From: a virus
Lineage: Duplodnaviria > Caudoviricetes
Length of the DNA stretch: 64,000 bases
IMG/VR virus record: IMGVR_UViG_3300019374_000291
Coordinates: 31,736 to 95,735 of that record
Strand: one strand, 5' to 3'
Positions 34,465 to 59,232 of the stretch are shown piece by piece (positions within the stretch are counted from its first letter, which is position 1; every line of letters starts with the position of its first letter). Under the pieces are notes generated by a model. It saw only the letters and a list, made by a program, of their open reading frames with translations. It had not been told where the DNA came from and searched no databases. Position numbers and translations under genes: made by a program.

Positions 34465-35433
34465 ATGAGTACCGATGATAAGAAGGTCAAACGAACAACA
34501 AGTAAAGTGACACGAGCCGGAGCGAATGCCGTTCCCCAGAAAGCGGCAAATGCGGGGCTGACAACAAATGCGCAGCTTCATATGACTGATTCTGTCATCG
34601 GGAAGGCTTCTGATGAGCGTACTGCTGAATCTGTCAGATTCGGGCCTGCGATCAAGGCATTCAGAGCAAAGGCAGGGCTCTCACAGGCAGAACTTGCTGA
34701 TATCGTTCATGTCAGCCGCAATACGGTCGTGAAGTGGGAAAATGACGGATACAAGCCAGATCATGACACGATCGTTGAATTGTGTAAAATTCTCGGTATG
34801 TCGCTGGATGACCTTTACGGCATTGCGACAACTGCGGTGACACAGCAGGAGCTGAAGATGCTGCGGGAATACCGCCTCATCAGTCCTGTCGGGCAGAAGG
34901 TCATCGAAAAAATGATTTTTCATATGCTTGATGAGGAGCTGAAAGCGAAGGACGAACTGATGAAAGCATCCTTTGCACTGTTCGAGACACCCTGTACAAG
35001 AGCAGCGGCTGGCTCCGGTACCCCCTACTCCGATGAGGAAATGACATACTGCTTTATGAGGAAAACCGACAGGAACCGTCTTGCAGATGCTGTGGTCGGT
35101 GTTGTCGGAGACAGTATGCTGCCAGTCTACCACGACGGTGACAGTGTCTACATTGAATACTGCGAGGACGCTTATCCAGGAGAGGATGTGGTCTGCAACA
35201 CACCAGATGGTCTGATCATCAAGCGGCTTTCCGCCGACCACAGGCTGTTCTCTGTGAATCCGAAGATTCCGTACTCTGAAAAGGATGATGGATATACGAT
35301 TCAGATCGTGGGGCGTGTATTGGGCATTGCAGAGACATCCGACTTCCCGGCTGACGGAGAGGATAAGATTCTGGAAAATTTGTTTGACAGAGAGATTGGT
35401 CTGTTCAAGCAGGAACACCATATGTATGACTGA
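34465..35433 (+). CDS. XRE HTH plus S24 peptidase (CI/LexA-like repressor)
   Basis: [21 protein letters not shown]; AAAG cleavage site, [11 protein letters not shown]. Confidence 0.88.
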
Positions 35434-40313: not shown

Positions 40314-40390
40314 ATAAGATGAATTATAATGTCTACAAGCAGTTTTGTGCCTGCGGATTAACATAGAAATAAGTGAATGGTGTTTCAAAA

Positions 40391-42913
40391 ATGAAAAGAA
40401 TCAACGATGATAGATTGACCTATATTAGCCTTTTCAGTAGTGCTGGCGTTGGATGCTATGGTTTTAAGATGCACGGATTTGAGTGTATCGCCACTAATGA
40501 GATAGTAGAGCGTCGCATCAACGTTCAAAAGTTTAACGAGAAGTGTAAATATGAAACGGGCTATATTTGCGGAGATATTACAGAGGAGAGCGTCAAGCAA
40601 CATTTACTTGGGGAAGTGGAACGGTGGAGGAAAGTCGAAAAAATCGGCAATGTCACTGTTATTATCGCAACTCCGCCTTGTCAAGGTATGTCAGTAGCTA
40701 ATCATAAAAAGGCTGATAATGAAATTGTTAGGAATTCTCTTGTTATAGAATCGATTAAAATTATTGAGGAAATAAGTCCCCTATTCTTCGTATTTGAAAA
40801 TGTTCCTGCTTTTATGAAGACCATATGTACTGATACAGATGGAGCAGAAAAACCTATTTCAGAAGCGATAGAAGCACATTTAGGCTCTAAATATGCTACT
40901 TACTCACAAGTGATTAATTTTAAGAACTATGGTGCTTGTTCAAGCCGTTCAAGGACAGTAGTTATCGGTGTCAGAAAAGACTTAGCTGATTTTATCTCTC
41001 CGTTTGAACTCTTTCCTGATTATCAAGAGGAAAAGACGTTAAGAGAGGTGATCGGTCACCTGCCAGCTCTGCAAGAATTCGGGGAAATAAGTAAAAGTGA
41101 CATATACCACGCATTTAGGGTATATCCAGAGCATATGCGTAGTTGGATTGCCGACTTAAAAGAGGGTGAATCCGCATTTGATCAGTCGGATATTAGTAAA
41201 GTCCCTCATAAAGTTGTAGATGGCGAAATTGTTGTAAATATACGCAAAAATGGAGATAAGTATCGTAGGCAATATTGGGATAAGGTCGGACCATGTATCC
41301 ATACAAGGAATGATCAACTCGCAAGCCAAAATACCATACACCCAAGTGATGACAGAGTCTTCAGCATCAGAGAACTGATGATGATGATGACGATACCAAG
41401 CTCTTTCAGGTGGACGAACATTCCTGAGCAAACTCTTAACTCTCTCTCTATTGAGAAAAAAAGAGCTTTCTTGAAGAAAGAAGAGATTAAAATCAGGCAG
41501 TGTTTAGGAGAAGCTGTACCAACTGCAATCTTTGAGAGTATTGCTGATAAGATAGCTTTTTTTTTCAGTAGGCAGCATCTCAGCGATGTGGAAGTCAAGA
41601 AACTGATAGATACTACAGACTTAGGCTCGCTCGATAGTGTAATCAACTATATTTCTGCTAATTTCGATACGGTGGGTATATCATCTATCTCAAAAGTGGT
41701 TGAATATGCAAATGCAAAGCGAGAACATAACGCCGCTTTCTTTACTGATAAATCCATACTTAATGAGATAATGAAATATCTTCCTGATATTGACAAGGAT
41801 TCGATTCGCATTCTTGAACCATCTGTCGGAACAGGTAATTTTATTCCATTTATCATAAAAAAGTATGCTGCCGCTAAATCGGTCATAATAGATGTTGTTG
41901 ATATTGATCCAGATGTTATCGCGGTTTTGAAATATATTATCAGTAAGTTCGCTCTTCCTGATAATGTGACTATCAATTATATCAACGATGATTTTCTTCT
42001 TCATAAATTCAACATGCGCTATGATATGGTGATAGGTAATCCTCCTTTCAACAAATTAGGCTCAAATAATAAAGCTTTGAAGCTGTATAAAGCGCAAGCT
42101 GTGAACACTGATACAACCAATACTTTCTCATTCTTTTTAGAGAAAGCTATTCAGATTAGTGATTATGTGTCATTAATCGTACCGAAATTTCTGCTAAATA
42201 CTCCGGAATTCAGGAAAACACGAGAAGTATTGGAAAAAAAGCATATTGACTCCATCATTGATTTTGGTGAAAATGGCTTTAAGGGCGTATTGGTTGAAAC
42301 TGTATGCGTTAATGTTAATACGCTCGAATCAGCGGCTAAAACAATCATTCGCTCCATGACAGAGCAAGTTACGTTCGTTCAGAAACAAAGCTATATCACT
42401 GATTCCGCGTTTCCGTACTGGCTTATCTATCGCAATGAGTTTTTTGATAAGATAGCTAAAAGGCTTACTTTTGATGTGTTCACCGTGTTCAGAGATCGTC
42501 AGATTACGAATAAACTACTTTCTACTCAAGGTGATATAAGGGTTATCAAATCTCGAAACATCAACGATTTGGGTACACAAATTGAAAGTATAGAGGGATA
42601 TGATTCTTATATCTCAGCAGACGATGCAAGGCAGTTAAGCGTTTATGCCTTTTATGAGAGCGATAATGTTTATCTTACTCCTAATATGACATATAAGCCT
42701 CGTTTGATTAAGAAGCCCCCATATGCCCTTGTTAATGGCTCGGTAGCAATTCTAACGCTAAAAGACGGATTTTCGATAAACGAAATGCAAAGAGGATACT
42801 TCTCAACTGACGAATACAGAGCTTTCTATAAGATAGCAAGGAATTATCAGACTCGTTCACTCAATGTAGACAGTAATTCGGTTTTCTTCTTTGGTTTGCT
42901 GAAAGAGGTGTAA
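40391..42913 (+). CDS. Bifunctional C5-cytosine plus N6-adenine DNA methyltransferase (M.HpyAV/M.Hin4II-like)
   Basis: SLFSSAG, TPPCQG, FENVP, GEAVP; then ILEPSVGTG and GNPPF. Confidence 0.88.
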   Translation: MKRINDDRLTYISLFSSAGVGCYGFKMHGFECIATNEIVERRINVQKFNEKCKYETGYICGDITEESVKQHLLGEVERWRKVEKIGNVTVIIATPPCQGMSVANHKKADNEIVRNSLVIESIKIIEEISPLFFVFENVPAFMKTICTDTDGAEKPISEAIEAHLGSKYATYSQVINFKNYGACSSRSRTVVIGVRKDLADFISPFELFPDYQEEKTLREVIGHLPALQEFGEISKSDIYHAFRVYPEHMRSWIADLKEGESAFDQSDISKVPHKVVDGEIVVNIRKNGDKYRRQYWDKVGPCIHTRNDQLASQNTIHPSDDRVFSIRELMMMMTIPSSFRWTNIPEQTLNSLSIEKKRAFLKKEEIKIRQCLGEAVPTAIFESIADKIAFFFSRQHLSDVEVKKLIDTTDLGSLDSVINYISANFDTVGISSISKVVEYANAKREHNAAFFTDKSILNEIMKYLPDIDKDSIRILEPSVGTGNFIPFIIKKYAAAKSVIIDVVDIDPDVIAVLKYIISKFALPDNVTINYINDDFLLHKFNMRYDMVIGNPPFNKLGSNNKALKLYKAQAVNTDTTNTFSFFLEKAIQISDYVSLIVPKFLLNTPEFRKTREVLEKKHIDSIIDFGENGFKGVLVETVCVNVNTLESAAKTIIRSMTEQVTFVQKQSYITDSAFPYWLIYRNEFFDKIAKRLTFDVFTVFRDRQITNKLLSTQGDIRVIKSRNINDLGTQIESIEGYDSYISADDARQLSVYAFYESDNVYLTPNMTYKPRLIKKPPYALVNGSVAILTLKDGFSINEMQRGYFSTDEYRAFYKIARNYQTRSLNVDSNSVFFFGLLKEV

Positions 42914-42914
42914 T

Positions 42915-44144
42915 ATGAGATTTTTAAGTAAAGACGAGATTGATTCGTTTCTTTCTCAGAGGAATTATGATATAAGACTTTCACACAATGCCAGGTGGAT
43001 TGATCAAAAGTGCACTCCTGACGTTATTTCTATAATCGCAGACTGCATCGTAAATTATGTAGCTGAGAATGGCAATGACTTCTTTTCATCAATGGATATT
43101 TGGCATAATGATTATACAGTAACGTATGTAGAGAGTATTTTCAAGAAGCCAAATCCTGACGAAACTAAAGCTCGCAATGAATATGATAAGTTTTTCCAGC
43201 AACCGATGGAGCTTATGGCTTATGCAGGAGTCCTTGAAAAGAAAAAGGTGAAAAACCGTAATTTTTATCGTATTGCTAATGAAGATATTATAGAATACCT
43301 TTCATTGCGTGACCGAAACGCTTTGACGTTTTTACAGTGCTACATTACTAAGGTTTTAACTGATTCGGGTATTATCGAAATGTTCAACGCCTTTTTCAGT
43401 AATACAACTAAAGAGAATTTCGATGATCTTAAAGAGCGTTATGAAGATTTCATCATTGCTCATACTCCTATAAATGGTAGGACAGAATGTCGAAGAATAT
43501 TTACTAAGGTTATTAACCCTTTGGCTTTTCTTCATGGAACAGAGGGTACAGAAAAAGGCAGGCTTTCTAAACACAAGATAACTTATGATATGTTGATGTA
43601 TAACCGGGATAATTTCAGGGATATTTATTCAGATAAGCCTAAAGAAATGACACGTTCAGAGTATGAAAAGACAGCAAATATCAGCATAAACAAGGATCTT
43701 ACAAAGTATATGTCTGCAAAAGCAAAGAAGATTGTTCGCATATACAATGATCAGTTCCGTGATGGCATCACCGAAGTGACCTATGATAAACAGCATATTG
43801 GAGATATGGCAACGCATATTCATCATATTTTCCCTGAAGCTGATTACCCGGCAATATGCCACTTTATCGAAAACCTTATTGCATTAACACCTACACAACA
43901 TCTAAACTACGCTCATCCAAATGGTAATACGCAAAAGATCAATCGAGAATATCAGCATATATGCCTATTGGCGAAGTCTGATACGATAAGAGATGATATT
44001 GAAAACCATTCTGATCCAATTTATTCTTTCGATAAGTTCCTGTATGTTCTTTTCATCGGTCTTGAAATGGATTCGTTTAGCCAAATCGAGAATGGTGATT
44101 ATGATGGCTTAGTTACGGCTATTAACTTAGCGTATTCAGCATGA
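42915..44144 (+). CDS. Type IIS restriction endonuclease with C-terminal HNH (HpyAV/Hin4II-like)
   Basis: HIHHIFP...ENLIALTPTQH..AH; about 410 aa, coupled to the fused methyltransferase. Confidence 0.78.
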   Translation: MRFLSKDEIDSFLSQRNYDIRLSHNARWIDQKCTPDVISIIADCIVNYVAENGNDFFSSMDIWHNDYTVTYVESIFKKPNPDETKARNEYDKFFQQPMELMAYAGVLEKKKVKNRNFYRIANEDIIEYLSLRDRNALTFLQCYITKVLTDSGIIEMFNAFFSNTTKENFDDLKERYEDFIIAHTPINGRTECRRIFTKVINPLAFLHGTEGTEKGRLSKHKITYDMLMYNRDNFRDIYSDKPKEMTRSEYEKTANISINKDLTKYMSAKAKKIVRIYNDQFRDGITEVTYDKQHIGDMATHIHHIFPEADYPAICHFIENLIALTPTQHLNYAHPNGNTQKINREYQHICLLAKSDTIRDDIENHSDPIYSFDKFLYVLFIGLEMDSFSQIENGDYDGLVTAINLAYSA

Positions 44145-44195: not shown

Positions 44196-44477
44196 ATGGA
44201 GAAGCTTGTGTTCGGTAAGAACGGACAGGTTCATTTTGATTCTGTAGAAGAACGTGACGAAGCCGTAGAATACATCAAGAATACCCCTGAAAATGTTGAT
44301 TATAATGTTCATGAGGATAATCAGAATCAGGGGGCGTGGGGTTCAGAAGACAGAATTCATTTCAGAAGTGAAGCTGGTGTTCCGGATTGTTTAAAAAGAA
44401 TCATGACTGCTGGAAATGATAGTGTATACGGAAGAATTAACTGTAAAGAGTTTGTTGATTATATCAAGTCCCATTGA
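44196..44477 (+). CDS. Hypothetical protein (93 aa)
   Basis: Strong GGAGGT RBS; protein-like sequence. Confidence 0.75.
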   Translation: MEKLVFGKNGQVHFDSVEERDEAVEYIKNTPENVDYNVHEDNQNQGAWGSEDRIHFRSEAGVPDCLKRIMTAGNDSVYGRINCKEFVDYIKSH

Positions 44478-44547: not shown

Positions 44548-44582
44548 CGAGCCTACGAGGAAACTTGTAGGCTCGTTTCTTT
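44548..44582 (+). terminator. Rho-independent terminator
   Basis: CGAGCCTAC/GTAGGCTCG stem followed by TTTCTTT. Confidence 0.7.
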
Positions 44583-45114
44583 CAGGATAACCATAGTCTA
44601 TTGACACAAATGATCTCCGTTCCGCATTAGTCGTTATCGGAATTGGAATTATGGTGCGTTCCACAACAGGCAGATATCCCCAAAGGAACACACTTACCCG
44701 TAAGCTTTCACTCTCTGTACTTTCAAAGAGAGCACTTTTTCATCGGTCAGTTTTCTGCTCTGCGGTTGTGTATAACGCTCAGGCCGCCACAGCTGCACGG
44801 GCGTTTTGCCCACCTTTGCCGGTGACTACCACGGGAATTGTCCGGCAGAAAATGAGTCCATTTGTGTATGCCGCACTAGGAATCGCACTCTTGCCGGAGT
44901 AAAACCGCATCTGAGTAGAACCCTGTTAGAATATTCAATAAGCTTCCTTTCAGATGTGGCAATGTGGTGGCAGTACAATTCTTTATCTGAGGCTGATCCA
45001 AGCTCATTCAAATATTCGGATAATCAATATTATTCTTCTGGAGAATAGATCTGAGTTCATCGATGTAAATGCGTGTGTGCTGATTGCTTATGCGTTTTTT
45101 CTATGCACAAATTT

Positions 45115-45171
45115 ACTGTCACATTTTTGTGACAGTTGCGAATTGACATTTGAGCCATAATGTGATAGCAT
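45115..45171 (+). promoter_or_regulatory. Palindromic operator ACTGTCACA-N4-TGTGACAGT next to promoter TTGACA-N17-TAGCAT
   Basis: Perfect 9-bp inverted repeat at 45115-45136; -35 at 45143; extended -10 at 45166. Confidence 0.75.
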
Positions 45172-45203
45172 AAAGGTGTATAATGGAAAAGGAGTAGGTT
45201 GAC

Positions 45204-46184
45204 ATGCAAAAGAACAAATTACTACTGCTGACCGAAATCTTGAAGCAACAGTCCGATGCTGAACATCCCATTACAACAAACACTTTGATAGAAAAGCTTG
45301 CTGGCCTTGGCATTTCATGTGATCGTCGAACTCTGGCAAGAGATATATCTCAACTACAGGATATGGGTTACTCTGTCAGAAGTACTAAAATCGGACACAG
45401 CAATGCTTTCTATTTGGAACATAACGAGTTCTCCTTAGCAGAACTGAAGATTCTCATTGATGCTGTTCAGGCTTCTTCTGTAATACCGGAAGAAACGACT
45501 AATGCTTTGATTGAAAAAATAGCAAATATTGGCGGAACTCACTGTGCAGAATTGCTCAAGCAGAACAGGATTCGCTTTAATATCAGAAAGCAAACCAATA
45601 ACAGCGTCTTAGACACAATTGCTATTATTGAAGAATCGTTCAAACGGCAGACTCAGGTGTCCTTCTTCTATTTCAAGCATGACGAGAATGGAGACAGAGT
45701 ATATCAGCGCGGCAAGGAAAGATATGTCGTAGATCCCATAGCCCTGATCTATACGGATGATAAATATTATTTGCGTTGCTACAATTCAAATAGGAAGGAA
45801 TACCGTAATTATCGTATTGATCGCATTGAGGATGTTCAGCATCTCGACAGCCTGATTGGTGATGAAGCTCTTGTTTCTGCTAAAGAGCTGGAAACATATA
45901 CCTCAAAGACATTTAAAATGTATGGTGGAACTGAAGAAAAAGTAGAATTAGAATTTACAGAAGACCTTATAGATGTGATTTATGATCAGTTCGGTCTGGA
46001 TACAAAGATAAAACGATCAGGCAATAATCGGTATACAACTACGGTTAAAGTCCAGATCAGTGGTACATTTTGGGGATGGTTCTTTCAATTTCCTGATCAG
46101 ATGCGGATAATCTCGCCGGAGACTGTCTCTGCACAATGTCAGGAATGGGCTCAAAAAGCATTAAAGGCACAAGAACTCAAATAA
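45204..46184 (+). CDS. WYL-domain transcriptional regulator (wHTH-WYL-WCX)
   Basis: CDRRTLARDI HTH; VDPIALIY...YYL...YRIDRI; C-terminal FWGWFFQF...IISP. Confidence 0.9.
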   Translation: MQKNKLLLLTEILKQQSDAEHPITTNTLIEKLAGLGISCDRRTLARDISQLQDMGYSVRSTKIGHSNAFYLEHNEFSLAELKILIDAVQASSVIPEETTNALIEKIANIGGTHCAELLKQNRIRFNIRKQTNNSVLDTIAIIEESFKRQTQVSFFYFKHDENGDRVYQRGKERYVVDPIALIYTDDKYYLRCYNSNRKEYRNYRIDRIEDVQHLDSLIGDEALVSAKELETYTSKTFKMYGGTEEKVELEFTEDLIDVIYDQFGLDTKIKRSGNNRYTTTVKVQISGTFWGWFFQFPDQMRIISPETVSAQCQEWAQKALKAQELK

Positions 46185-46223
46185 TGATATTTCGAATACG
46201 CATGATTCATTAAGGGGGATATT

Positions 46224-48455
46224 ATGCAGCTTTGTTTTAGCAAATTCAGATTTCGTCAGAAAACAACTCCTAAGCACTTTTATCGTTATCGTATCATCAG
46301 TAAAAATCCATATAGCGACAAAAACAGCTTTAATGGAAATTCGATGAGATATCAAATCTTACAGGTAAAACAAAATCGGGTTAATGGTCGAAAACTGTTC
46401 ATCTACGTTCTTGACAATGAATACCTGTTGACCTATGAAAAAATACCGTTTATTCCGGAGTTTGAGAATGATGCTGAACTGGATTTGGTAAGCGAAAAGG
46501 AGTACTTTCCTATTTCGGAGATCACGCTCGATCTTTATAAAAAATGGACCGAATACTACGTGTACAATCAGATTGTCAGTTATTGCAAACAGAACAGAAA
46601 TGTGTATGATTATCGGATTGAAAACCAGTATTCACAGCTCATACCACTGCCTGATAATTCACTTCAGATTACGATTAAGAGGATTTTTCGCGTAAATACT
46701 GAGGTAATGCCAGATGGCACGGTGTTTTTAGCGGTTGATATTAAATGCGAATTTGAAAGCGCTCTGACAATCTACGATTATATTCAAATGCATAAAGATG
46801 TCAGAGGTTTATCCGTAAAATGTATATGGCAAGGCTTTGACAAAACCTATCAGATAGAAATGGTTCATGATACTCCGATTTCCGAATCGATTGACGGCCT
46901 CAATCTTTACGACTATTGGAATAGCAAAAAGCCGCATCTGTTGAAGAATCTTGATCTGAATGCACCGGCTGTATCTGCGCTGGATGAAAAGAAAAAGCGG
47001 AGTGGGCTCTATATTCCGCAATCTTTGAAGCCAGTCATCACTCGTGAATATATTGCTGCGCATGATAAAACTCTTTCCGCCCAAGTGGATCAGTTTACAA
47101 AGCTGTCTATGAAAAAGAGACTTGAGATCATTCGCTCATTCCTGGATGCTGTTAACAGCTCCAGACAAATAGTCGATACAGCGCCGGTATCAGTATCTGA
47201 ATTTTGTTTTCAGGAGATGAGCCTGGAAACAGATTTACCAACACTATTAATTGCGAACGAGAAAAAAATCAAATTTTCGGAAAAATACAAAGCGTTTACG
47301 CAGGGATTCTATAAGCTACCTGAACAACCTATTCTTGCTGCATTTATGAGCTATGATGAAGAAGCACAAAAAAGCTATGATGTTGTTTCAGCAATCCTTG
47401 ATTACACAAGAGGCACGGTAAACCATATGCAAGATCGGTACGTTAACCCGAATCTGCTCCCTCTGAAGTTCTATGGCAAATCGTTTCATTATAAGAAGGG
47501 AGATCGCCTTTCTTATGAGGAAACGGCACGTGAGATCAGTAAAATCTCCGGTATCAACTTCGCCATTGCTGCCTTGCCGTTAGAACTCGATGAAGAAGAC
47601 TATTATGATGATTCTGTAGCTTCTCCATATGATTCGTTCAAGAAAGTCTTCGCTGATTTCGGTATCCCTTCACAAATGGTATCCCTCAGTATGGTGAAGG
47701 ATTTGGGAAGCAATAACGTAAAGTATCGGCTTCAAAATCTGATTCTTGGAATATTATGTAAGTCAGGTGGAATTCCGTGGATTCTGGAGTCACCTATGGA
47801 TGACGTAGATTGTTTTATCGGACTAGATGTTGGAACACAGGAAAAAGGGATTCACTATCCTGCGTGTTCTGTATGTTTGGATGGCAGAGGAAATCTGGTC
47901 GGGTATTATTCAACAAATGTTGCACAGCACGGAGAAATCATCGATGTGAAATCGCTTGAAACCATTTTCAATCGAGTTTTGACAGCATATAAAGACGCAA
48001 ATGGCTGTTATCCGAAGCATATCGTAATTCACAGGGATGGTTTTTCTCATGAAGAAAGCGCCTGGTATGATTCATATTTTGCCAGACGAGATATCAAGTT
48101 TGATGTGGTTGAAGTAAGAAAGAACATACCTATAAGATTGATGGATATAGAAGCTGTAACTGACGAGATGAACCCAGCGTCCGGTTCAGCAATTATAAGA
48201 GAAAATGAAGCATATCTAATCTCAACAGCAGTTAAGCCGTTTTTAGGAGCCCCGCGACCTTTATTATTAGTCCACCAGAAGGGTGAACTGGCGATGGAAA
48301 GCATAGTCAGACAAATATACGTTCTGTCTGAGATGCACATTGGTTCAATGAGAACCAGCAGATTACCATTAACAACGTTATATGCTGATAAAATATGCAA
48401 GCATCATGACCATGTACCTCACGATACATTGTCTAATAAATTGTTCTTTTTATAA
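46224..48455 (+). CDS. ago: Long prokaryotic Argonaute, CbAgo-like, with an intact DEDD tetrad
   Basis: MID pocket PYDSFKK...IPSQM...K; PIWI GLDVG, QHGE, HRDG, YADK; 743 aa ending LFFL. Confidence 0.95.
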   Translation: MQLCFSKFRFRQKTTPKHFYRYRIISKNPYSDKNSFNGNSMRYQILQVKQNRVNGRKLFIYVLDNEYLLTYEKIPFIPEFENDAELDLVSEKEYFPISEITLDLYKKWTEYYVYNQIVSYCKQNRNVYDYRIENQYSQLIPLPDNSLQITIKRIFRVNTEVMPDGTVFLAVDIKCEFESALTIYDYIQMHKDVRGLSVKCIWQGFDKTYQIEMVHDTPISESIDGLNLYDYWNSKKPHLLKNLDLNAPAVSALDEKKKRSGLYIPQSLKPVITREYIAAHDKTLSAQVDQFTKLSMKKRLEIIRSFLDAVNSSRQIVDTAPVSVSEFCFQEMSLETDLPTLLIANEKKIKFSEKYKAFTQGFYKLPEQPILAAFMSYDEEAQKSYDVVSAILDYTRGTVNHMQDRYVNPNLLPLKFYGKSFHYKKGDRLSYEETAREISKISGINFAIAALPLELDEEDYYDDSVASPYDSFKKVFADFGIPSQMVSLSMVKDLGSNNVKYRLQNLILGILCKSGGIPWILESPMDDVDCFIGLDVGTQEKGIHYPACSVCLDGRGNLVGYYSTNVAQHGEIIDVKSLETIFNRVLTAYKDANGCYPKHIVIHRDGFSHEESAWYDSYFARRDIKFDVVEVRKNIPIRLMDIEAVTDEMNPASGSAIIRENEAYLISTAVKPFLGAPRPLLLVHQKGELAMESIVRQIYVLSEMHIGSMRTSRLPLTTLYADKICKHHDHVPHDTLSNKLFFL

Positions 48456-48485
48456 TAATTCACGATTCTGCTTTAAGAAAGTGCG

Positions 48486-49826
48486 GTGATGAAAATGGAA
48501 AAATGCATATATAATGGTCGGGTTCTCTATGCTTATCAGGTATTACATAACTTTGATTTTGAACAGGAAATTCGTAGTTGTCACGCACTTACATGCTGTG
48601 ACTGTGGAGAACCTGTTTTCTTCAAGCATGGTAAACAACGCGCAGAATGCTTTGCCCATTACAAACGAGAGGATTGTAAATATGGCGAATACTGCAGCAA
48701 GCAAAGCAATATTTTCAAGCACACGCAACGAGAACTATTTGCACCACTCCAACGAATTGCCGAGAACCGTGGCTTTTCCTTAGAAGAGGACGTTATCATC
48801 ATTCATGATCATTACACAGCTTTTGTGCTGAGAAGTGCATCTGTGAATTATGCTATAGATATTATTGATACGGCGGTCACTTCAACTACGCTTGAAAAAC
48901 GGAAAAGGCTCTATGAAGAAGCCGGATATAAATATCTTCAGATTACTGTCGACAAAGATGCAGAGTCACAGCCGTTTTCCGAACGAGAGATGGCGTATTT
49001 CCCTGTGAAGTATTCGCTCAATAAATCATGTAATCATACAGCGATTGTTATTGATAATGAACGTAAGACTTGGTTTATCTATATTCTTGACGGTATGGAT
49101 AAGTCGGATCTTCCTGACTGCTTCTATAATCTGGCTGATTGGTACGAGAACGACACCTTTGCGGCGCCTATATCTTTGATAGATCTCGATATAGATGCAC
49201 AAGGTTTCTTTACACCGTCATCAAGAAAAGCATATGGCGATTTTCGTAACTATAGAAGGACACAGAAGGCAAAATGGTTGAAAGAAGAGTCTGATCGACG
49301 TGAACGCCAAAGAAAGCAAGCAGAAGAAGCACATCGCCAAGCAGAAATAAGGCGTCAAGAATTCGAACGCAGGCTTAAAGAAGAAAAAGAAAAAAGCAGG
49401 CAGGAAGAAGCTGTAAGACGTGCTGCCGCTGAAGCAGCGAAACTGCAAGCAGCACAAGCGGCAGAACAGAAAAGGCAACAGCGGTTAGCTGCCGAAAGAG
49501 CGGAGATAGATCGAATTCATCGCACAACAGGTGCGTATGTCGGCTCAAAAATCAAGGGGAAATATGAGAGGTTTTCACTTGAAGAACTTACATCCTCAAA
49601 ACCTGGAAACTGGCTGCGTGAATACACTAAGGCGGACTTTGAGCAGAAAGTAGCTGAACTCAAGGAACATAAAGCGTCTGCTGTTACGACCTTATTTGCG
49701 AAGCTATGCTATATTAATTCAGCTGAAAAGGCGATTCTGCTTAATATTCTTGATGAATTAGAAGGAACTGATCCTGAGAGCGCGCGTGTTATCAGACATC
49801 TTATGGATAGTGCCGGAGTAAATTGA
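48486..49826 (+). CDS. CoiA-like protein (zinc ribbon, degenerate PD-(D/E)xK fold, coiled coil)
   Basis: CCDCGEPVFFKHG...FAH...C; YAIDII...EKRKRLYEEAGY; E/R/A/Q-rich helix. Confidence 0.65.
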   Translation: MMKMEKCIYNGRVLYAYQVLHNFDFEQEIRSCHALTCCDCGEPVFFKHGKQRAECFAHYKREDCKYGEYCSKQSNIFKHTQRELFAPLQRIAENRGFSLEEDVIIIHDHYTAFVLRSASVNYAIDIIDTAVTSTTLEKRKRLYEEAGYKYLQITVDKDAESQPFSEREMAYFPVKYSLNKSCNHTAIVIDNERKTWFIYILDGMDKSDLPDCFYNLADWYENDTFAAPISLIDLDIDAQGFFTPSSRKAYGDFRNYRRTQKAKWLKEESDRRERQRKQAEEAHRQAEIRRQEFERRLKEEKEKSRQEEAVRRAAAEAAKLQAAQAAEQKRQQRLAAERAEIDRIHRTTGAYVGSKIKGKYERFSLEELTSSKPGNWLREYTKADFEQKVAELKEHKASAVTTLFAKLCYINSAEKAILLNILDELEGTDPESARVIRHLMDSAGVN

Positions 49827-49852
49827 AACAATCATTTGCACACTGATATAAT
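49823..49852 (+). promoter_or_regulatory. Possible internal promoter TTGAAA-N18-TATAAT (extended TG) upstream of sbcD
   Basis: Read directly from the sequence. Confidence 0.5.
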
Positions 49853-50007
49853 TTTAACTGCATAAACAGAACGGAGATATTATGTCAAAGTGCTCAGATT
49901 CGCTACGATCACAGCTTCAAGCTGTTAAAGGCGTTGCACAATATACTAACAAGGATGCGCTTTGCATTTCTTATTAACATGATTAAATCTTCTGAAGGAG
50001 GCTATTT

Positions 50008-51180
50008 ATGAGGTTTTTTCATTTATCAGATCTTCATATCGGAATCAAGCTATATAATTATGATTTACACGCAGATCAAAAGGACATACTTGAGCAAATC
50101 ATACATGCAGCTGAAGAACACCAGCCGGACGCTGTTGTTATTGCTGGCGACATCTATGACAGGGCAATTCCAGGACCAGATGCAGTAGCCCTATTTGATT
50201 GGTTTGTCACGCGCCTTGTACAGGTTCTCCCAGAGGCGGAGATCATGATTATTAGTGGAAACCACGATAGTTCTCAAAGACTGAATCTCTTCCGCAATAT
50301 CCTGGAAACACATCATATTCACATGGTCGGACTCCCGCCGCTTAGTATGGATGACCATATTGAAAAAGTAACTTTGAAGGACCAGTATGGTGAGATTGAT
50401 TTCTGGCTCTTGCCGTTTGTGAAACCAGCAATGGTTCGTAATACACTTGGCTTAGATGAGGATAGCCCCACTTTATCCTATGATAAAACGATCCGTGCTC
50501 TTCTTTCAAGAGAGACTATTGATTCAACGCGCAGGAATATTTTAGTTAGCCATCAGTTCTATATACCATCAGGTAGCAGTCCGGAAGATATCGAGCGTAT
50601 GGATAGTGAAATAACAACGGTTGGTAATATAGACAGTATTGGCTCCGATGTCCTTTCACCTTTCGATTATGCGGCTTTGGGACATATTCATAAGCCAATG
50701 AAAGTCGGCTTACCACAGTTCAATTATTGCGGAACACCTTTTCCCTACTCGATAAACGAGGCTGGTCAAAAGAAAGGAATTGTACTTGTAGACATAACTG
50801 AAAAAGGAAATGAACTTGATATTCAGAGAATTCCTTTGAATCCCATGCATCAGGTTCGGGTAATAAAAGATACCTTAGAGAATGTACTAAAGCAATCAAG
50901 CAGTGATTATGTCCTTGTGGAATTAACAGATAAAGTAGATCTTGATGTCATTGACATGCGTGATCGTATTCAAAGGACTTTTCCGAATCTTTTGAATATA
51001 CGCAGAACGGTCAATCTGACCGATAGAAAAGAAATCAATATTTCAGAGGACGATAATAAGCCATTGGATCCATTTAATATATGCAAGGGTTTCATAGGCG
51101 ATTTAGATGCTGAAGATGAAGATCTTTTAAGAAGTATCATCGATCTTGCAAGAGAAACTGAGAAAGGAGTAGAATCATGA
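50008..51180 (+). CDS. sbcD: SbcD/Mre11 nuclease
   Basis: HLSDLHIG, AGDIYD, SGNHD, SHQF, ALGHIH. Confidence 0.95.
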   Translation: MRFFHLSDLHIGIKLYNYDLHADQKDILEQIIHAAEEHQPDAVVIAGDIYDRAIPGPDAVALFDWFVTRLVQVLPEAEIMIISGNHDSSQRLNLFRNILETHHIHMVGLPPLSMDDHIEKVTLKDQYGEIDFWLLPFVKPAMVRNTLGLDEDSPTLSYDKTIRALLSRETIDSTRRNILVSHQFYIPSGSSPEDIERMDSEITTVGNIDSIGSDVLSPFDYAALGHIHKPMKVGLPQFNYCGTPFPYSINEAGQKKGIVLVDITEKGNELDIQRIPLNPMHQVRVIKDTLENVLKQSSSDYVLVELTDKVDLDVIDMRDRIQRTFPNLLNIRRTVNLTDRKEINISEDDNKPLDPFNICKGFIGDLDAEDEDLLRSIIDLARETEKGVES

Positions 51181-54100
51181 AACCAATTAAACTGAGAATG
51201 CAGGCGTTTGGTTCTTACGGAAAAGAAACAGTCATTGATTTTACGAAGCCTTCTCAGAATCTTTTTCTGATTACAGGAGATACTGGTTCTGGCAAGTCAA
51301 CTATTTTTGATGCTATAGTCTTCGCATTATATGGACATGCCAGTGCATCAGAAGATTCAAAAGAAGGTATTGATCTTCAAAGTCAGTTCGTCAGCAAAAG
51401 TGTTACTCCGTATGTAGAACTTACTTTTTCCGAATTGCGTGGTGGATCAGAGCAAATCTATCGGGTTCGACGAGAACCGTTCCATATGAGGAAAAAGCAG
51501 CGCGGGTTTGGCGAAAAAGAATCACCTGAACAAGTAGAGATATTTAGACCTGATGGTACTCATGCTGTTATGAGTGTGAGCCAGAGGCAGAAGCAGACCA
51601 ATGAAATCAATCAGGAGATAGTAAGCATTGTTGGCTTAACTAAGGCGCAGTTTATGCAAGTTGCTATGATTGCTCAGGGTGACTTCATAAGACTTATTCG
51701 CGCGGATACTAAAGAAAGAAAGCCGATTTTTCGTAAAATCTTTGATACTGGAATCTATGAAAGGATAATTACTGTTTTATCAGAACAATATAAAGAGGTT
51801 GCCGAAATCATAAAGAGCATCAAGAGAGTTGTTCAGAATGAGGCTAATAAAATTAAGATTCCAGCTGATTACTCGGATTATCCTCGTATTGAAGGATTGC
51901 AAAAAAGAATCCTGTTAGATGACAAGTGGTCAACTGTTGAACTAGAGGAATTCCTAGCAGCTCTGCAGCAGCTTTGTGCAGTAGTATCCGAACAATCTAC
52001 CACTATAACAAAGCAAAGAAAAGATGCGGAAAAGAAACGTGATGAAGCACGAAGAAAGTACACAAAGGCAGAGACTCTTCTGAAGTCTTATTCTGAATTG
52101 GAAAAAGCGCAAGCAATTCTTCTTGAATGCAGTCAGCTGGAAGAAGAAATGAAAAAAAAGGCAAAGTTGAAAACTGACATTCAAAAGGCATATGATATCA
52201 GTAGCGTATATGAATTATTAATGAAAGCAAATAAAGCTCTGTCTGATTCTCGGAATGAACTAAAAAAGCTTCAAGATGATTTGCCAGGTTTGAAAAAGAA
52301 AGAAAGTGATGCTGATAAAGCCAAAACGCAGGCGACGGCCGCTTTCATGCAGAAAAAGGATGAGTATACTAGACTGAGCGAATCGGTCAAGAAAGCGCGT
52401 GCCGTTTTCAAAAAACTTAAAGAAGCGTTGGGTGATGAATTAAAGTATCAAAAGCAAGAAAAGACAGCAGCAAAAGCCAAGGAAGAAGCTGAAAAGGAAT
52501 TAAGAGAGTTTGATAAGAAACTCAAAGACTGGAAAGATGAATATAAACAGTTGATGGGGATTGACGCTTTACTTGTCCAAAACCAGCTTGAATGTGATAA
52601 GCTAAACCGTGTTAAGACATGCCTTGAAGCAGCAGAAAAAGCTGAATCTGCCAAAACGAAGCAAAAAAAAGCAGCGGAGGCAGCGCAAAAAAAGTACCTA
52701 GATGCTAAGGCGTTATTCGCGGTTCAACATGATGAGTTTATAGCACTAAGAAATGCATTTTATGATGCACAAGCTGGTCTTTTGGCAGCAACTCTTGAAG
52801 ATGGAAAGCCTTGCCCGGTATGTGGATCACTGACCCATCCCACTCCATGTGAATTAATCACAGAACATCAAGAGCTTACGAGAGAACTCATCGAACAGGA
52901 GAGCGCTAAGGTTGATGAATTGGAGAAGAATCAGAGCGAATTAGCAGCGAAAGCTAAAACAGCATTAGAATTACTTAAAGAAAAGGAAACTCAAGCCAAG
53001 ATAAAGATTGAAGAATTGGTTGCGACATTGCGAGAAGCTGAATTCGAGTTTGCAGAACCAATTACTTTCAAACAGATTAAAGCAATACTTATTAACCGGC
53101 AGACTCAAACAGATGAGCAGAAGACAAAACTTGATCAGGACAAAAAACGGTTCAGTGAATTGAGCGCGCTGATTGATAAATCTTCTCAAGAACAGCAAAT
53201 ACTTGAAGAGCAACTTTTAACAGCAACTAAGAAAAAAGACGAAGCACATGAACGTTTTATTGAAGCACAAGCCAAACGAGAAGAAATTGAAAAGCAACTA
53301 GAATATCCGACAGAACAAGATGCTGATGAAGCTCTTTCACAGGCAGAAGCTTCATACTCTGAAGCTGAAAAACAGTCGAAAGCTGCGGATAAAGCGCAGA
53401 ATTCTGCTAAGAGTAATCGTGAAAAAGCAGAAACAAAGATTCAGGTTCTTGAAAGTCAGACAATTCCCCATCAATTATCGGATGTTGAAAACTTGCAGCA
53501 GCAGTATAATGCGATAATGGAAAAGAATGATCTTCCGGAATCCGAATGGAAAGGAGTGGTGCTTCATCATAAAAAGGAAGAAGCGGAGAGTATTGAAACG
53601 GAACTCGCCGCATTTCGCGACAAAAAGTCCAGTGCAGAGGGCATGGCAAAATCAGCAATAGCAGCTGTCGGTGAGCAACCAAAACCAAATGCTGATGAGC
53701 TGAAAGAAGAAAAGGAACGCTGTGAAAAAGAATACGAGCAAACAGATAAGCTCTATTCTGACATCTCAGACAACTACAAGAACAATAATACAATACTAAA
53801 GTATTTGACTTCGCAAATGGATGATCAGAAAACACAGTTAAGACGATTTAATCGTATAAAGAATTTGCGTGACAAATTAGCAGGTAAAGAAAATGGGGAT
53901 AAGATTGATATCGAAACGATGGTCCAGAGAATGTATCTTGAGCGAATTCTCCATGCAGCCAACAGTCGTTTCTTAGAGATGTCTTCTGGACAATTTGAAT
54001 TGCGCATTATGGATCAGAGCAAATCAACACAAAAAGACCGTGGACTCGATCTTATGGTGTATTCAAATGTGACAGGTTCAGAACGGGAGATTAAAATGCT

Positions 54101-54392
54101 TTCCGGCGGCGAATCTTTTATGGCAGCATTAGCACTTGCTCTGGGAATGTCTGACCAGATTCAACAGAACTCCGCTATCGTTAATCTTGATATTATGTTT
54201 ATCGATGAAGGGTTTGGCTCTTTGGACGCACATTCACGTAATCAAGCGATAAAGGTACTGAAGAATATGGCTGGCGGTTCAAGAATGATTGGCCTTATTT
54301 CGCATGTTACTGAATTAAAACAGCAAATTGATGATAAATTGGTTGTAGAAAGAGATCAAACAGGAAGTCATGCTCATTGGGTAGTATCTTAA
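51177..54392 (+). CDS. sbcC: SbcC/Rad50 SMC-like ATPase
   Basis: GDTGSGKS, CPVCGS zinc hook, LSGGE, FIDEGFG, ISH; ATGA overlap with sbcD. Confidence 0.95.
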   Translation: MKPIKLRMQAFGSYGKETVIDFTKPSQNLFLITGDTGSGKSTIFDAIVFALYGHASASEDSKEGIDLQSQFVSKSVTPYVELTFSELRGGSEQIYRVRREPFHMRKKQRGFGEKESPEQVEIFRPDGTHAVMSVSQRQKQTNEINQEIVSIVGLTKAQFMQVAMIAQGDFIRLIRADTKERKPIFRKIFDTGIYERIITVLSEQYKEVAEIIKSIKRVVQNEANKIKIPADYSDYPRIEGLQKRILLDDKWSTVELEEFLAALQQLCAVVSEQSTTITKQRKDAEKKRDEARRKYTKAETLLKSYSELEKAQAILLECSQLEEEMKKKAKLKTDIQKAYDISSVYELLMKANKALSDSRNELKKLQDDLPGLKKKESDADKAKTQATAAFMQKKDEYTRLSESVKKARAVFKKLKEALGDELKYQKQEKTAAKAKEEAEKELREFDKKLKDWKDEYKQLMGIDALLVQNQLECDKLNRVKTCLEAAEKAESAKTKQKKAAEAAQKKYLDAKALFAVQHDEFIALRNAFYDAQAGLLAATLEDGKPCPVCGSLTHPTPCELITEHQELTRELIEQESAKVDELEKNQSELAAKAKTALELLKEKETQAKIKIEELVATLREAEFEFAEPITFKQIKAILINRQTQTDEQKTKLDQDKKRFSELSALIDKSSQEQQILEEQLLTATKKKDEAHERFIEAQAKREEIEKQLEYPTEQDADEALSQAEASYSEAEKQSKAADKAQNSAKSNREKAETKIQVLESQTIPHQLSDVENLQQQYNAIMEKNDLPESEWKGVVLHHKKEEAESIETELAAFRDKKSSAEGMAKSAIAAVGEQPKPNADELKEEKERCEKEYEQTDKLYSDISDNYKNNNTILKYLTSQMDDQKTQLRRFNRIKNLRDKLAGKENGDKIDIETMVQRMYLERILHAANSRFLEMSSGQFELRIMDQSKSTQKDRGLDLMVYSNVTGSEREIKMLSGGESFMAALALALGMSDQIQQNSAIVNLDIMFIDEGFGSLDAHSRNQAIKVLKNMAGGSRMIGLISHVTELKQQIDDKLVVERDQTGSHAHWVVS

Positions 54393-54434
54393 CCGTGTGA
54401 CCGCAACAAATAACTGAAATGTAGGAGGACAAAA

Positions 54435-54842
54435 ATGAATCAGTTTTTTAATAATCATGACTTGACATTCGACAACCCTATTGTATCGGCATTTAATTCA
54501 TATCTGATGGATTACCCGACTCCTTTTCCGGAGAGCGATGATGACTACTCATTATCGTGTTATATTGAAGAATACACAACTCCCAACGGAATTGCTGCTC
54601 GTCTCAGAGATAAATCTAGTGACAAAAAGATTGAATTTTGGACAAGCCCTAATGATCCGAATGCTATTGAGCAAAAGAGAGGTTTACTTTTGTTTCTGTC
54701 TGAAACAAAGCGAATGAATAATCCTGATTACTTCAAAAAAGACGGAAAAGCTTATATTTTGATTCAGGGCATTTTGCTTAAGGAAATGAAAGATACTATT
54801 GAACTGGCTAGCTATTTTGCAGAATTATTCTATGCTGAATAA
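54435..54842 (+). CDS. Hypothetical protein
   Basis: AGGAGG RBS; AT-rich, co-oriented with sbcC. Confidence 0.7.
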   Translation: MNQFFNNHDLTFDNPIVSAFNSYLMDYPTPFPESDDDYSLSCYIEEYTTPNGIAARLRDKSSDKKIEFWTSPNDPNAIEQKRGLLLFLSETKRMNNPDYFKKDGKAYILIQGILLKEMKDTIELASYFAELFYAE

Positions 54843-54935
54843 AGGCAGAAATCTTCTAGGACCGACTGTGTGAGCAAAATCGCATATCGATGACCTTAAA
54901 GTGCTATTACCCTGACACAGAGCATCATAATATTC

Positions 54936-54964
54936 AACAGGACACCCACATCGGATGTCCTGTT
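54936..54964. terminator. Hairpin between convergent genes
   Basis: AACAGGACA...TGTCCTGTT. Confidence 0.65.
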
Positions 54965-58506: not shown

Positions 58507-59232
58507 TTACATATATTTCCTGTGCTTCTTTTCCGGCCAGATCTTCTCAACGAGCAGCCTGTCCAGATCCGCACAGATATCCTTTGCACAGTCCGCCAGA
58601 TCTAAATCATTCATCGGACTGTTGACAACTTCTTTATATGCGCTCCGCATCACCTCCTCAGTAAACGCGCTGTAGACCATTCTACTGGATTCATCGTGCA
58701 TGATGCACTCGTATCGATATATGTACCCGAGCCAGTATGCATAGGAAAGTTCGTCGATGTTGCTGTTCTCCGTTTCCGGCAGTGCTAACAGAGCCTTTGG
58801 TGTGTGCTTTCTGTCTGCTTCATAAGCGTGAGCAAGCAGCATACTCTTATTCTCGGTCTCGTCCGCGTTTTCAAGGATTTCCTCGATCCAGTATAGTGAC
58901 TCTATGAGTGACCGCGGATTCTGCATCAGTGCAGGGATCTGAAGTAGCTCCTCCAGTGCGCTGCCGACACCGTTCGATGATGAGAAGTTATAGTCGATCA
59001 CGCCGGCGAGCTGGCTCGTCATATACAGCGGCACAAAGGAGCTCATCGGGAACCCCATCGCCGCTGCTTCCATAAACAGACAGCCCTGCTTGTGACAGTA
59101 GATGCTGTCGTTTTCCGTCCAGATACGCTCTGCGTTCACAACGTTGTGGTTCCTTGGCGCAGCGCGTTCGAGCCACATCATACGCTTCACATTTTCAGAA
59201 AGCGGTCTGCTTTTCGCAGGATCTCGTGACAT
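58507..59232 (-). CDS. Hypothetical protein
   Basis: TAATG overlap with the recombinase stop; QGCLF...YMTS...YWLGYIYRY. Confidence 0.7.
   Translation of the reverse strand: MSRDPAKSRPLSENVKRMMWLERAAPRNHNVVNAERIWTENDSIYCHKQGCLFMEAAAMGFPMSSFVPLYMTSQLAGVIDYNFSSSNGVGSALEELLQIPALMQNPRSLIESLYWIEEILENADETENKSMLLAHAYEADRKHTPKALLALPETENSNIDELSYAYWLGYIYRYECIMHDESSRMVYSAFTEEVMRSAYKEVVNSPMNDLDLADCAKDICADLDRLLVEKIWPEKKHRKYM

Follow-up and report, generated by a model that had tools for sequence, protein, structure and literature searches.

The subject of this study is a cluster of AT-rich genes within a 64,000-nt window of phage DNA, which covers positions 31736-95735 of the 95.7-kb IMG/VR provirus record IMGVR_UViG_3300019374_000291. 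On the + strand the cluster runs from a palindromic candidate operator and promoter, through genes for a WYL-domain regulator, a prokaryotic Argonaute (pAgo), a CoiA-like protein and the two subunits of an Mre11/Rad50-type enzyme (sbcD and sbcC, together sbcDC), to an open reading frame (ORF) of 135 aa, orf135. An earlier note on this DNA had proposed that the pAgo and SbcDC form one system. Comparison with related loci instead leads us to view the region, with a probability of roughly 0.55, as a mosaic defence island in a moron or hotspot region of the phage, assembled from separately exchangeable units, wherein the CoiA-like protein and a nuclease would act as partners and the pAgo would act autonomously. 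The gene set is intact, but it is a patchwork rather than a single new system.

Homologs of the pAgo, SbcC and the CoiA-like protein were collected, their neighbourhoods were compared, and the six window proteins were mapped onto every locus (designated by L numbers below). The region is read as a mosaic because different loci share different segments of the window. The DNA of L009, L010 and L012 matches only from 45084/96 to 49817/49935, ending inside the spacer between the CoiA-like gene and sbcD; that of L007 matches at 46187-48457 only, a segment comprising the pAgo gene and 37 nt upstream of it; that of L015 matches at 49996-54392 only, i.e. sbcDC; and L014 shares 48662-54951, which extends from the CoiA-like gene through sbcDC and orf135. 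We propose that three units are represented. The first would be a type II restriction-modification (R-M) system. The second would be a WYL-controlled operon, whose conserved members are a WYL repressor acting at a palindrome in its own promoter and a nuclease-fold protein of the CoiA superfamily, with a slot filled in some elements by a 36-aa Cys-rich ORF and in others, including the window, by a complete pAgo of the CbAgo/CpAgo type. The third would be a nuclease slot 3' of the CoiA-like gene, served by its own promoter and occupied in most relatives by a gene combining DUF4116 and Metallophos domains, and in the lineage of the window by sbcD-sbcC-orf135.

The gene content, order, + strand, AT-richness and coordinates reported in the earlier note were all confirmed, as were the short gaps among the first three genes, put at about 30-40 bp (39 nt from WYL to pAgo and 30 nt from pAgo to the CoiA-like gene); the CoiA-like gene and sbcD are separated by 182 nt, and sbcC and orf135 by 42 nt. 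What did not withstand comparison was the central proposal, that WYL, pAgo, CoiA-like protein and SbcDC operate as one, the Mre11-Rad50 enzyme of the island making guides or resecting targets cut by the pAgo. This explanation, which we now regard as quite unlikely, draws on the co-oriented and tightly spaced genes, the intact motifs of the enzymes and the predicted WYL operator upstream, on the recurrence of CoiA-like-sbcDC-orf135 at 95% identity in L014, and on the precedent of APACE1, in which a long-A pAgo is joined by an accessory nuclease (PMC12094033). Yet among nine pAgo-bearing arrangements with readable flanks sbcDC is present in one, the window alone, and it was not found near related pAgos in other genomes. 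A DNA homology break and the remnant of a displaced gene mark a module boundary between the CoiA-like gene and sbcD, near-identical WYL-CoiA-like units exist without pAgo, and the same SbcDC clade is found without pAgo; L014, for its part, belongs to the same lineage and is not an independent case, its contig beginning inside the CoiA-like gene, where a pAgo would go unseen. The expectation that WYL and CoiA-like genes neighbour related pAgos was borne out in relatives of 78-92% identity, while its extension to sbcDC failed and the pAgo itself proved optional. A self-contained Argonaute and Mre11/Rad50 system, if true, would have addressed the acquisition of guides by DNA-guided pAgos, and our literature search, of incomplete coverage, returned no described module linking a pAgo to SbcCD, WYL or CoiA. 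Judged from these sequence comparisons, the neighbourhood of pAgo and SbcDC is a local juxtaposition and not a conserved design, and is therefore not worth pursuing as a family-wide mechanism.

Table 1. Features of the window and of the slots in related loci (positions without a locus designation are those of the window).
Feature	Position	Strand	Basis or remark
CI-like S24 repressor	34465-35433		backbone
Type II R-M, separate upstream module	40373-44144	+	fused C5 + N6 methyltransferase (846 aa), endonuclease (409 aa)
93-aa ORF after R-M genes	44196-44477	+	
Terminator-like hairpin after R-M module	44548-44575		terminator scan
Palindrome ACTGTCAC-N6-GTGACAGT	45115-45136	+	candidate WYL operator, from sequence
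Promoter TTGACA-N17-TAGCAT of WYL operon	45143-45171	+	promoter scan; palindrome 6 nt 5' of -35 box
HTH-WYL-WCX transcription regulator, 326 aa	45204-46184	+	Pfam, PADLOC
Long-A pAgo, CpAgo/CbAgo-like, 743 aa	46224-48455	+	Pfam, PADLOC, structure homologs
CoiA-superfamily protein, 446 aa	48486-49826	+	CoiA_N, AlphaFold model, fold matches
Promoter-like site	49823-49852	+	top-scoring in region, 11/12, extended TG
31-codon remnant ORF	49882-49977	+	first 18 codons are the start of a DUF4116-metallophosphoesterase gene; homology stops at ~49937
SbcD/Mre11-type nuclease, 390 aa	50008-51180	+	Pfam Metallophos + SbcD_C
SbcC/Rad50-type ATPase, 1071 aa	51177-54392	+	Pfam AAA_23 + SbcC_Walker_B
orf135, 135 aa	54435-54842	+	travels with this sbcDC cassette
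Fic-domain protein, 811 aa	54971-57406	-	adjoins island, convergent with orf135
Large serine recombinase	59232-61436		backbone
36-aa ORF between WYL and CoiA-like genes	L023:7842-7952; L025:9850-9960; L026:9856-9966; L028:1688-1798		
DUF4116-Metallophos protein, ~960 aa	L009:5285-8164; L025:11389-14280; L026:11389-14274; L027:11389-14280; L028:3168-6119		

The slot downstream of the CoiA-like gene

The DNA of the spacer between the CoiA-like gene and sbcD was aligned for the window, L009, L025, L027 and L014, and the alignment was read together with blastn limits and translations. The window and L014 keep the promoter-like site together with a ribosome-binding site, followed by 18 codons from the start of the DUF4116-metallophosphoesterase gene; beyond these, unrelated sequence continues into sbcD. 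Because these codons remain in the spacer, the sbcD-sbcC-orf135 cassette appears to have replaced that gene, leaving a scar. The site at 49823, flagged in the earlier note as a possible internal promoter, is conserved in the corresponding slot of relatives and is taken to be the conserved promoter of that slot.

The gene presumed to have been displaced is the usual one 3' of the CoiA-like gene in relatives. Its product has a calcineurin-like phosphoesterase domain at its centre, besides four DUF4116 repeats and a C-terminal third without assigned family; no relative was found in PADLOC or among solved structures. The corresponding Atlas clusters hold 90-210 members, from Bacillota and Actinomycetota, far more than the CoiA-like family. 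Occupancy of the slot is varied. Following the trio of WYL, pAgo and CoiA-like genes it contains DUF4116-Metallophos in L009, L027 and (as a fragmentary copy) L030, a 278-aa gene in L010 and L024, and an MmeI-type enzyme with a helicase in L012/13, while other non-nuclease neighbours after the CoiA-like gene include a 271-aa gene and an Abi_C + GmrSD pair, L019-22 being of the non-nuclease type also. A 1907-aa ORF also lies 3' of the trio in L010 (L010:15925-21648), with no NCBIfam match and no recorded Pfam match. In L028, the DUF4116-Metallophos gene overlaps the stop codon of the CoiA-like gene. The integrative element L023, which also encodes a relaxase and two integrases, carries the order WYL-36aa-CoiA-like-SbcD-SbcC, with 22 nt between the CoiA-like gene and the SbcDC pair; identity of its SbcD to the window protein is 38%, and its SbcC falls on a separate long branch. 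A metallophosphoesterase nuclease directly follows the CoiA-like gene in three distinct arrangements overall (DUF4116-Metallophos, the SbcDC of the window and that of L023), a pattern suggestive of coupling between the two.

The contents of this slot also bear on a rival explanation, in which the R-M system, WYL with the CoiA-like gene, the pAgo and sbcDC-orf135 are independent cargo of a hotspot with no functional coupling, the CoiA-like protein being a single-gene system and sbcDC, with or without orf135, a separate system or a repair accessory. We hold this to be somewhat unlikely. It would readily accommodate a clade of CoiA-like genes, at 51% identity, that occurs in prophages as a solitary cassette, its flanks variable and its neighbours R-M genes of type I or type III, as well as the CoiA-like gene of L018, which stands without WYL, pAgo or SbcDC. 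The non-nuclease genes that follow the CoiA-like gene in L010, L012 and L019-22, the SbcDC with its own divergent WYL gene in L015-17, and the DUF4116-Metallophos clusters that so outnumber the CoiA-like family point the same way. It is less easily reconciled with the placement of three different metallophosphoesterase nucleases, including two unrelated SbcDC lineages, directly after the CoiA-like gene, with the close spacing or overlap seen in L023 and L028, or with the exchange of one nuclease for another while the promoter and start-codon region were kept.

The WYL operon and its Argonaute-or-peptide slot

The first gene of the operon encodes a regulator with helix-turn-helix (HTH), WYL and WCX domains. 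The WYL match is firm (Pfam, E 3e-11, 43.5 bits against a cut-off of 21.8; PADLOC, E 6e-25), and those to WCX (E 1e-4) and HTH_11 (E 8e-4) lie slightly below their cut-offs. The operator/promoter and WYL gene that the earlier note placed ahead of the pAgo recur in relatives: the palindrome and the -35 box are conserved in nine of nine WYL-bearing loci, the most divergent (L012 and L023) included. Since the palindrome is conserved in these nine loci while the sequence 5' of it diverges among them, it is predicted to be the WYL operator, for which the comparative case is good; binding by the WYL protein, and the nature of the inducing signal, would follow the example of BrxR/CapW-type regulators. 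A WYL gene lies 5' of the CoiA-like gene in all loci of the clade defined by at least 63% CoiA-like identity, except L018.

The CoiA-like protein is the other constant member of the operon. Its CoiA_N match (E 7e-6, 25.9 bits) falls just short of the cut-off of 26.3 and is shared by all 23 close homologs, with E down to 1e-6; neither CoiA_nuc (PF06054) nor CoiA_C gave a direct match. A profile search of 1.8 billion representatives yielded 187 relatives of the family, and among 54 of these that were sampled CoiA_N is present in 45 and CoiA_nuc in 18. In an AlphaFold model (predicted local distance difference test score, pLDDT, 85) an N-terminal zinc ribbon (C37, C40, C55, H58) precedes an alpha-beta core at ~70-240, and one helix of ~105 residues, spanning 244-348, then leads to a small helical domain at the C terminus. 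The modelled core resembles the nuclease domains of Bax1, Hjc, Can2 and Vsr, with middling scores (Foldseek probability 0.9-0.99, VIA Z 6.8-8.0), and is predicted to be restriction-endonuclease-like. Invariant residues include E101, D102, H109, D125, D128, K138, Q152, D156 and K157. The consensus of the wider family reads HYT...AIEI, with D125 standing in place of its conserved E, and H109 is almost invariant throughout that family, members carrying CoiA_nuc included. We considered a dead nuclease site and did not accept it, in view of the near-invariance of H109 and the alignment of D125 with the conserved E.

The narrow CoiA-like family was found in none of 399 sampled Clostridia genomes, which indicates rarity in that sample and not absence. 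Scans of viral contigs with single-protein queries (SbcC, CoiA-like and DUF4116-Metallophos) gave no matches, and an alignment-based scan of viral contigs recovered the 51% CoiA-like clade only. Three loci lacking pAgo (L025, L026 and L028) combine WYL with a CoiA-like protein 77-92% identical to that of the window. In these, and in L023, the 36-aa ORF is retained exactly in the pAgo slot; it is Cys-rich and very acidic, with the pattern CWETGEY..DDCICE.C.HK.ECSGYE.DDD, and may be a small zinc-binding regulator or inhibitor. The existence of such WYL-36aa-CoiA-like loci indicates that the pAgo of the window occupies the slot of a pre-existing WYL-CoiA-like unit.

The occupant of this slot in the window is a full-length Argonaute (Pfam Piwi, E 5e-23; PADLOC pAgo, E 9e-177, covering model positions 3-733 of 733). 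Residues 13-743 align with residues 20-751 of CpAgo (9jh7) at E 2e-127, and residues 4-743 with CbAgo (6qzk) at E 3.5e-118. The earlier note described an active-type, CbAgo-like enzyme with GLDVG, GE, HRDG and YADK motifs, and we find the corresponding DEDD tetrad (D535, E571, D605, D722) to be intact, aligned with the motifs of CpAgo and invariant in 28 homologs; with 40-50% similarity to CpAgo and CbAgo, the protein is predicted to carry out DNA-guided DNA cleavage.

The distribution of this pAgo suggests recent movement. Homologs at 92%, 90% and 78% identity retain the WYL-pAgo-CoiA-like arrangement on related phage backbones, and those at 82% (L007), 63% (L004) and 58% (L005) stand alone amid unrelated genes. 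The trio is limited to a shallow clade of the pAgo tree (at least 78% pAgo identity), to which solo clades are sisters, and the solo 82% pAgo of L007 is nested within the trio clade (support 97). The presence of pAgo-less WYL-CoiA-like units, at up to 92% CoiA-like identity, and of a nested solo pAgo argues that the gene is a facultative cassette within the WYL-CoiA-like unit, one that by this phylogenetic evidence has recently moved in and out. A scan of genome contigs with the pAgo returned only one distant match and a 58% copy, in an uncultured Clostridia metagenome-assembled genome (L002), which is split, whether as a disrupted gene, by an insertion or through an assembly error: residues 15-585 and 582-724 match ~760 nt apart with extra short ORFs between (L002:9768-12663). 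Other window proteins are absent near it. In L004 the 63% solo pAgo lies ~2 kb from a complete pPIWI_RE system (restriction endonuclease, Z, and X/MID/RNaseH-PIWI components; L004:13432-20039), placing two Argonaute-type systems in one island. Complex prediction for the full-length pAgo with residues 1-245 of the CoiA-like protein, both supplied as alignments, scored 0.00 against a mark of 0.32, which is evidence neither way.

The sbcDC cassette and its phage setting

Both subunits of the Mre11/Rad50-type enzyme carry a full set of motifs. SbcD exceeds the TIGR00619 cut-off (139.9 against 77.65), with the phosphoesterase motifs DLH8, GDIYD47, GNHD84 and GHIH225 intact. SbcC scores 249 with TIGR00618, below the cut-off of 478.5, and is a diverged member in which all motifs are present (Walker A at 34, CPVC zinc hook at 546, LSGGE at 975, Walker B at 1006). 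The start of sbcC overlaps sbcD by 4 nt, and the two are translationally coupled. A tree, proposed in the earlier note as a way of distinguishing this copy from the housekeeping gene, places the window SbcC in a clade of its own with P0037, P0038 and the L015 protein (Shimodaira-Hasegawa-like approximate likelihood ratio test, SH-aLRT, 97), apart from 32 other Clostridia SbcC at ~40% identity. Within the clade, identity to the window SbcC is 95% for P0037 (from L014), 59% for P0038 and 53% for the L015-17 copy; P0043, the only other Clostridia SbcC whose context was checked, lies in an ordinary chromosomal neighbourhood. In L015-17, where SbcD is 72% identical to that of the window, neither pAgo nor CoiA-like gene is present. 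There a divergently transcribed WYL gene, whose product is 25% identical to that of the window, accompanies an sbcD-sbcC-192aa unit (L015:7703-14194; also L016 and L017) in a BREX-bearing island, placed between a BrxL gene with a HIRAN protein and an integrase. Orf135 recurs behind the sbcC of L014 with 95.6% identity, the homology there reaching as far as window position 54951. It has no family in Pfam, PADLOC, NCBIfam or PHROG and no usable Atlas match, and is not similar to the 192-aa ORF of L015.

The element that hosts the island is a temperate phage of Clostridia type. Its backbone, of ~50-52% GC, includes a replication module (DNA polymerase, primase, helicase, exonuclease, NrdD and methyltransferases) as well as a thymidine kinase and a UmuC/ImpB-type polymerase, and the accessory block of ~16 kb (39-55 kb of the window; 35-42% GC) lies between the lysogeny genes (CI-like repressor-tdk-umuC) and the serine recombinase. 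SbcC and SbcD match phage SbcC-like and SbcD-like families (phrog_19980, E 7e-135; phrog_77, E 4e-40; phrog_100, E 4e-29). These matches, on a temperate phage with its own replication module, invite the alternative that SbcDC is there for the phage, acting in its recombination-dependent replication or in end processing after the manner of T4 gp46/47 and T5 D12/D13, and not in defence. We judge this improbable: the cassette resides in the AT-rich accessory block by the lysogeny and integration genes, outside the replication module; closely related phage backbones lack it; and its relatives occur in defence islands, or behind WYL and CoiA-like genes, on integrative elements.

The flanks of the island are variable. 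Upstream, the R-M methyltransferase (Pfam DNA_methylase, Eco57I and N6_Mtase; PADLOC MTase_II, E 6e-273) and endonuclease (PADLOC REase_II, E 3e-139) are followed by the 93-aa ORF, which gave no family match in Pfam, PADLOC, NCBIfam or PHROG, and R-M genes at the same position differ between related loci. From the R-M terminator to the WYL promoter extends a stretch of ~500 nt (44580-45080) without convincing ORF, of which ~44700-44900 has a higher GC content than the remaining island; the stretch may be left over from earlier cargo. Homology with related elements starts only at 45084-45096. At the other end, L014 has a 1792-aa ATPase-like ORF where the window has the Fic gene, so this flank is variable too.

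Proposed mechanism and comparison with known systems

The gene content, intact motifs, module boundaries and pattern of presence and absence are seen directly in the sequences; repression by WYL, a role in defence and cooperation of the CoiA-like protein with its neighbouring nuclease are what we infer. In a lysogen the WYL repressor would keep the operon low until a signal, probably related to nucleic acids or damage, allowed the pAgo and the CoiA-like protein to be expressed. The pAgo would be an autonomous DNA-guided DNA endonuclease brought under WYL control with no need of its neighbours. Like CbAgo and CpAgo, it would load small DNA guides made at DNA ends and cleave invader DNA complementary to them. 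The CoiA-like protein and the Mre11/Rad50 enzyme would constitute a second, sequence-independent arm directed at branched or blocked DNA. As true CoiA cuts D-loops, the CoiA-like protein may by analogy be a structure-specific nuclease on replication or recombination intermediates of the invader; its task would be to nick or mark DNA that is branched or invading, and that of the metallophosphoesterase to process the ends so produced. The Mre11/Rad50-type enzyme would on this scheme be functionally the partner of the CoiA-like protein rather than of the pAgo, and any guide supply or resection by SbcDC for the pAgo would be opportunistic and incidental, not built in.

Several observations weigh against this mosaic interpretation. 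The window and L014 both have the CoiA-like gene, sbcDC and orf135 in an unbroken, co-oriented row, and the terminator scan detected no strong terminator between the CoiA-like gene and sbcD, so that read-through co-transcription with the pAgo could occur. CbAgo-type enzymes depend on double-strand-break processing for their guides (PMC12094033), and a nearby end-processing machine could therefore still help the pAgo; a cooperation of pAgo and SbcDC specific to this lineage would be compatible with the comparative data. The coupling of CoiA-like protein and metallophosphoesterase is seen in only three of about eight arrangements, the slot being conceivably a mere hotspot, and the contexts mostly derive from metagenome contigs whose flanks are short.

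The mosaic interpretation, if correct, would make this locus a case of a long-A pAgo captured under a WYL repressor and expressed inducibly from a prophage, and a clean example of cassette exchange in a defence operon with the scar still visible; the literature search, with the coverage stated above, returned no account of a WYL-controlled pAgo. The analysis also identifies a mobile, WYL-associated SbcCD clade. The repeated occurrence of a rare CoiA-superfamily protein ahead of Mre11-type nucleases on mobile elements offers a testable candidate for a new defence module, and WYL, CoiA-like protein and Mre11-type nuclease may together be a real, undescribed one. A fuller form of this idea, which we put forward tentatively and consider rather doubtful, sees in Clostridia prophages and integrative elements an inducible, undescribed module of defence that joins WYL to a structure-specific nuclease of CoiA-like type and to a metallophosphoesterase of Mre11 type (SbcDC or DUF4116-Metallophos), with a swappable slot for the 36-aa peptide or a CbAgo-type pAgo; in the pAgo versions the ends that the CoiA-like protein and SbcDC generate from invader DNA would also supply the pAgo with guides.

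The regulator resembles WYL defence regulators of the BrxR/CapW type in its HTH-WYL-WCX organization, its position as first gene of the operon and the conserved palindrome abutting its own -35 box, but here it heads a CoiA-like/pAgo operon. The sbcDC cassette shares with housekeeping SbcCD of Bacillota all nuclease, ATPase and zinc-hook motifs, the overlap of sbcD and sbcC and full length; it differs in the divergence of its SbcC from other Clostridia proteins and its score below the TIGR00618 cut-off, in belonging to a separate clade with mobile-element and defence-island members, and in the orphan ORF 3' of sbcC.

True CoiA is a competence nuclease of Bacillota that cuts the displaced strand at single-strand/double-strand DNA junctions of D-loops (bioRxiv 10.1101/2024.02.06.579203). 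The CoiA-like protein would share with it the CoiA_N zinc ribbon, matched just under the cut-off, and a predicted restriction-endonuclease-like core, and the catalytic sequence of CoiA is likewise atypical. It departs from CoiA in its added 105-residue helix and different C-terminal domain, and in the location of its gene, which has R-M, Abi and GmrSD genes as neighbours, on prophages and integrative elements, and is not part of a competence regulon.

The pAgo aligns over its full length with CbAgo and CpAgo. It agrees with them in N-PAZ-MID-PIWI length, the sequence around its DEDD residues is identical, and most of its relatives are, like these, stand-alone genes. The window protein and its clade of at least 78% identity differ in lying inside a WYL operon, between regulator and CoiA-like gene, on a prophage. 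The nearest precedent for a long-A pAgo with a nuclease beside it is APACE1, in which ACE1, an accessory nuclease of the Cas4 family, and the pAgo form a heterodimer; the accessory boosts plasmid interference, and the pAgo also works alone (PMC12094033). In both cases a long-A pAgo, active in APACE1 and predicted to be so in the window, is encoded with a protein of PD-(D/E)xK fold, again predicted in the window. The neighbour in the window is of the CoiA superfamily, with its zinc ribbon, atypical nuclease core and long helix, and not of Cas4, matching neither Cas4 nor PDDEXK_1; and the pairing, rather than being stably co-inherited across a pAgo subclade, is shallow and facultative on both sides.

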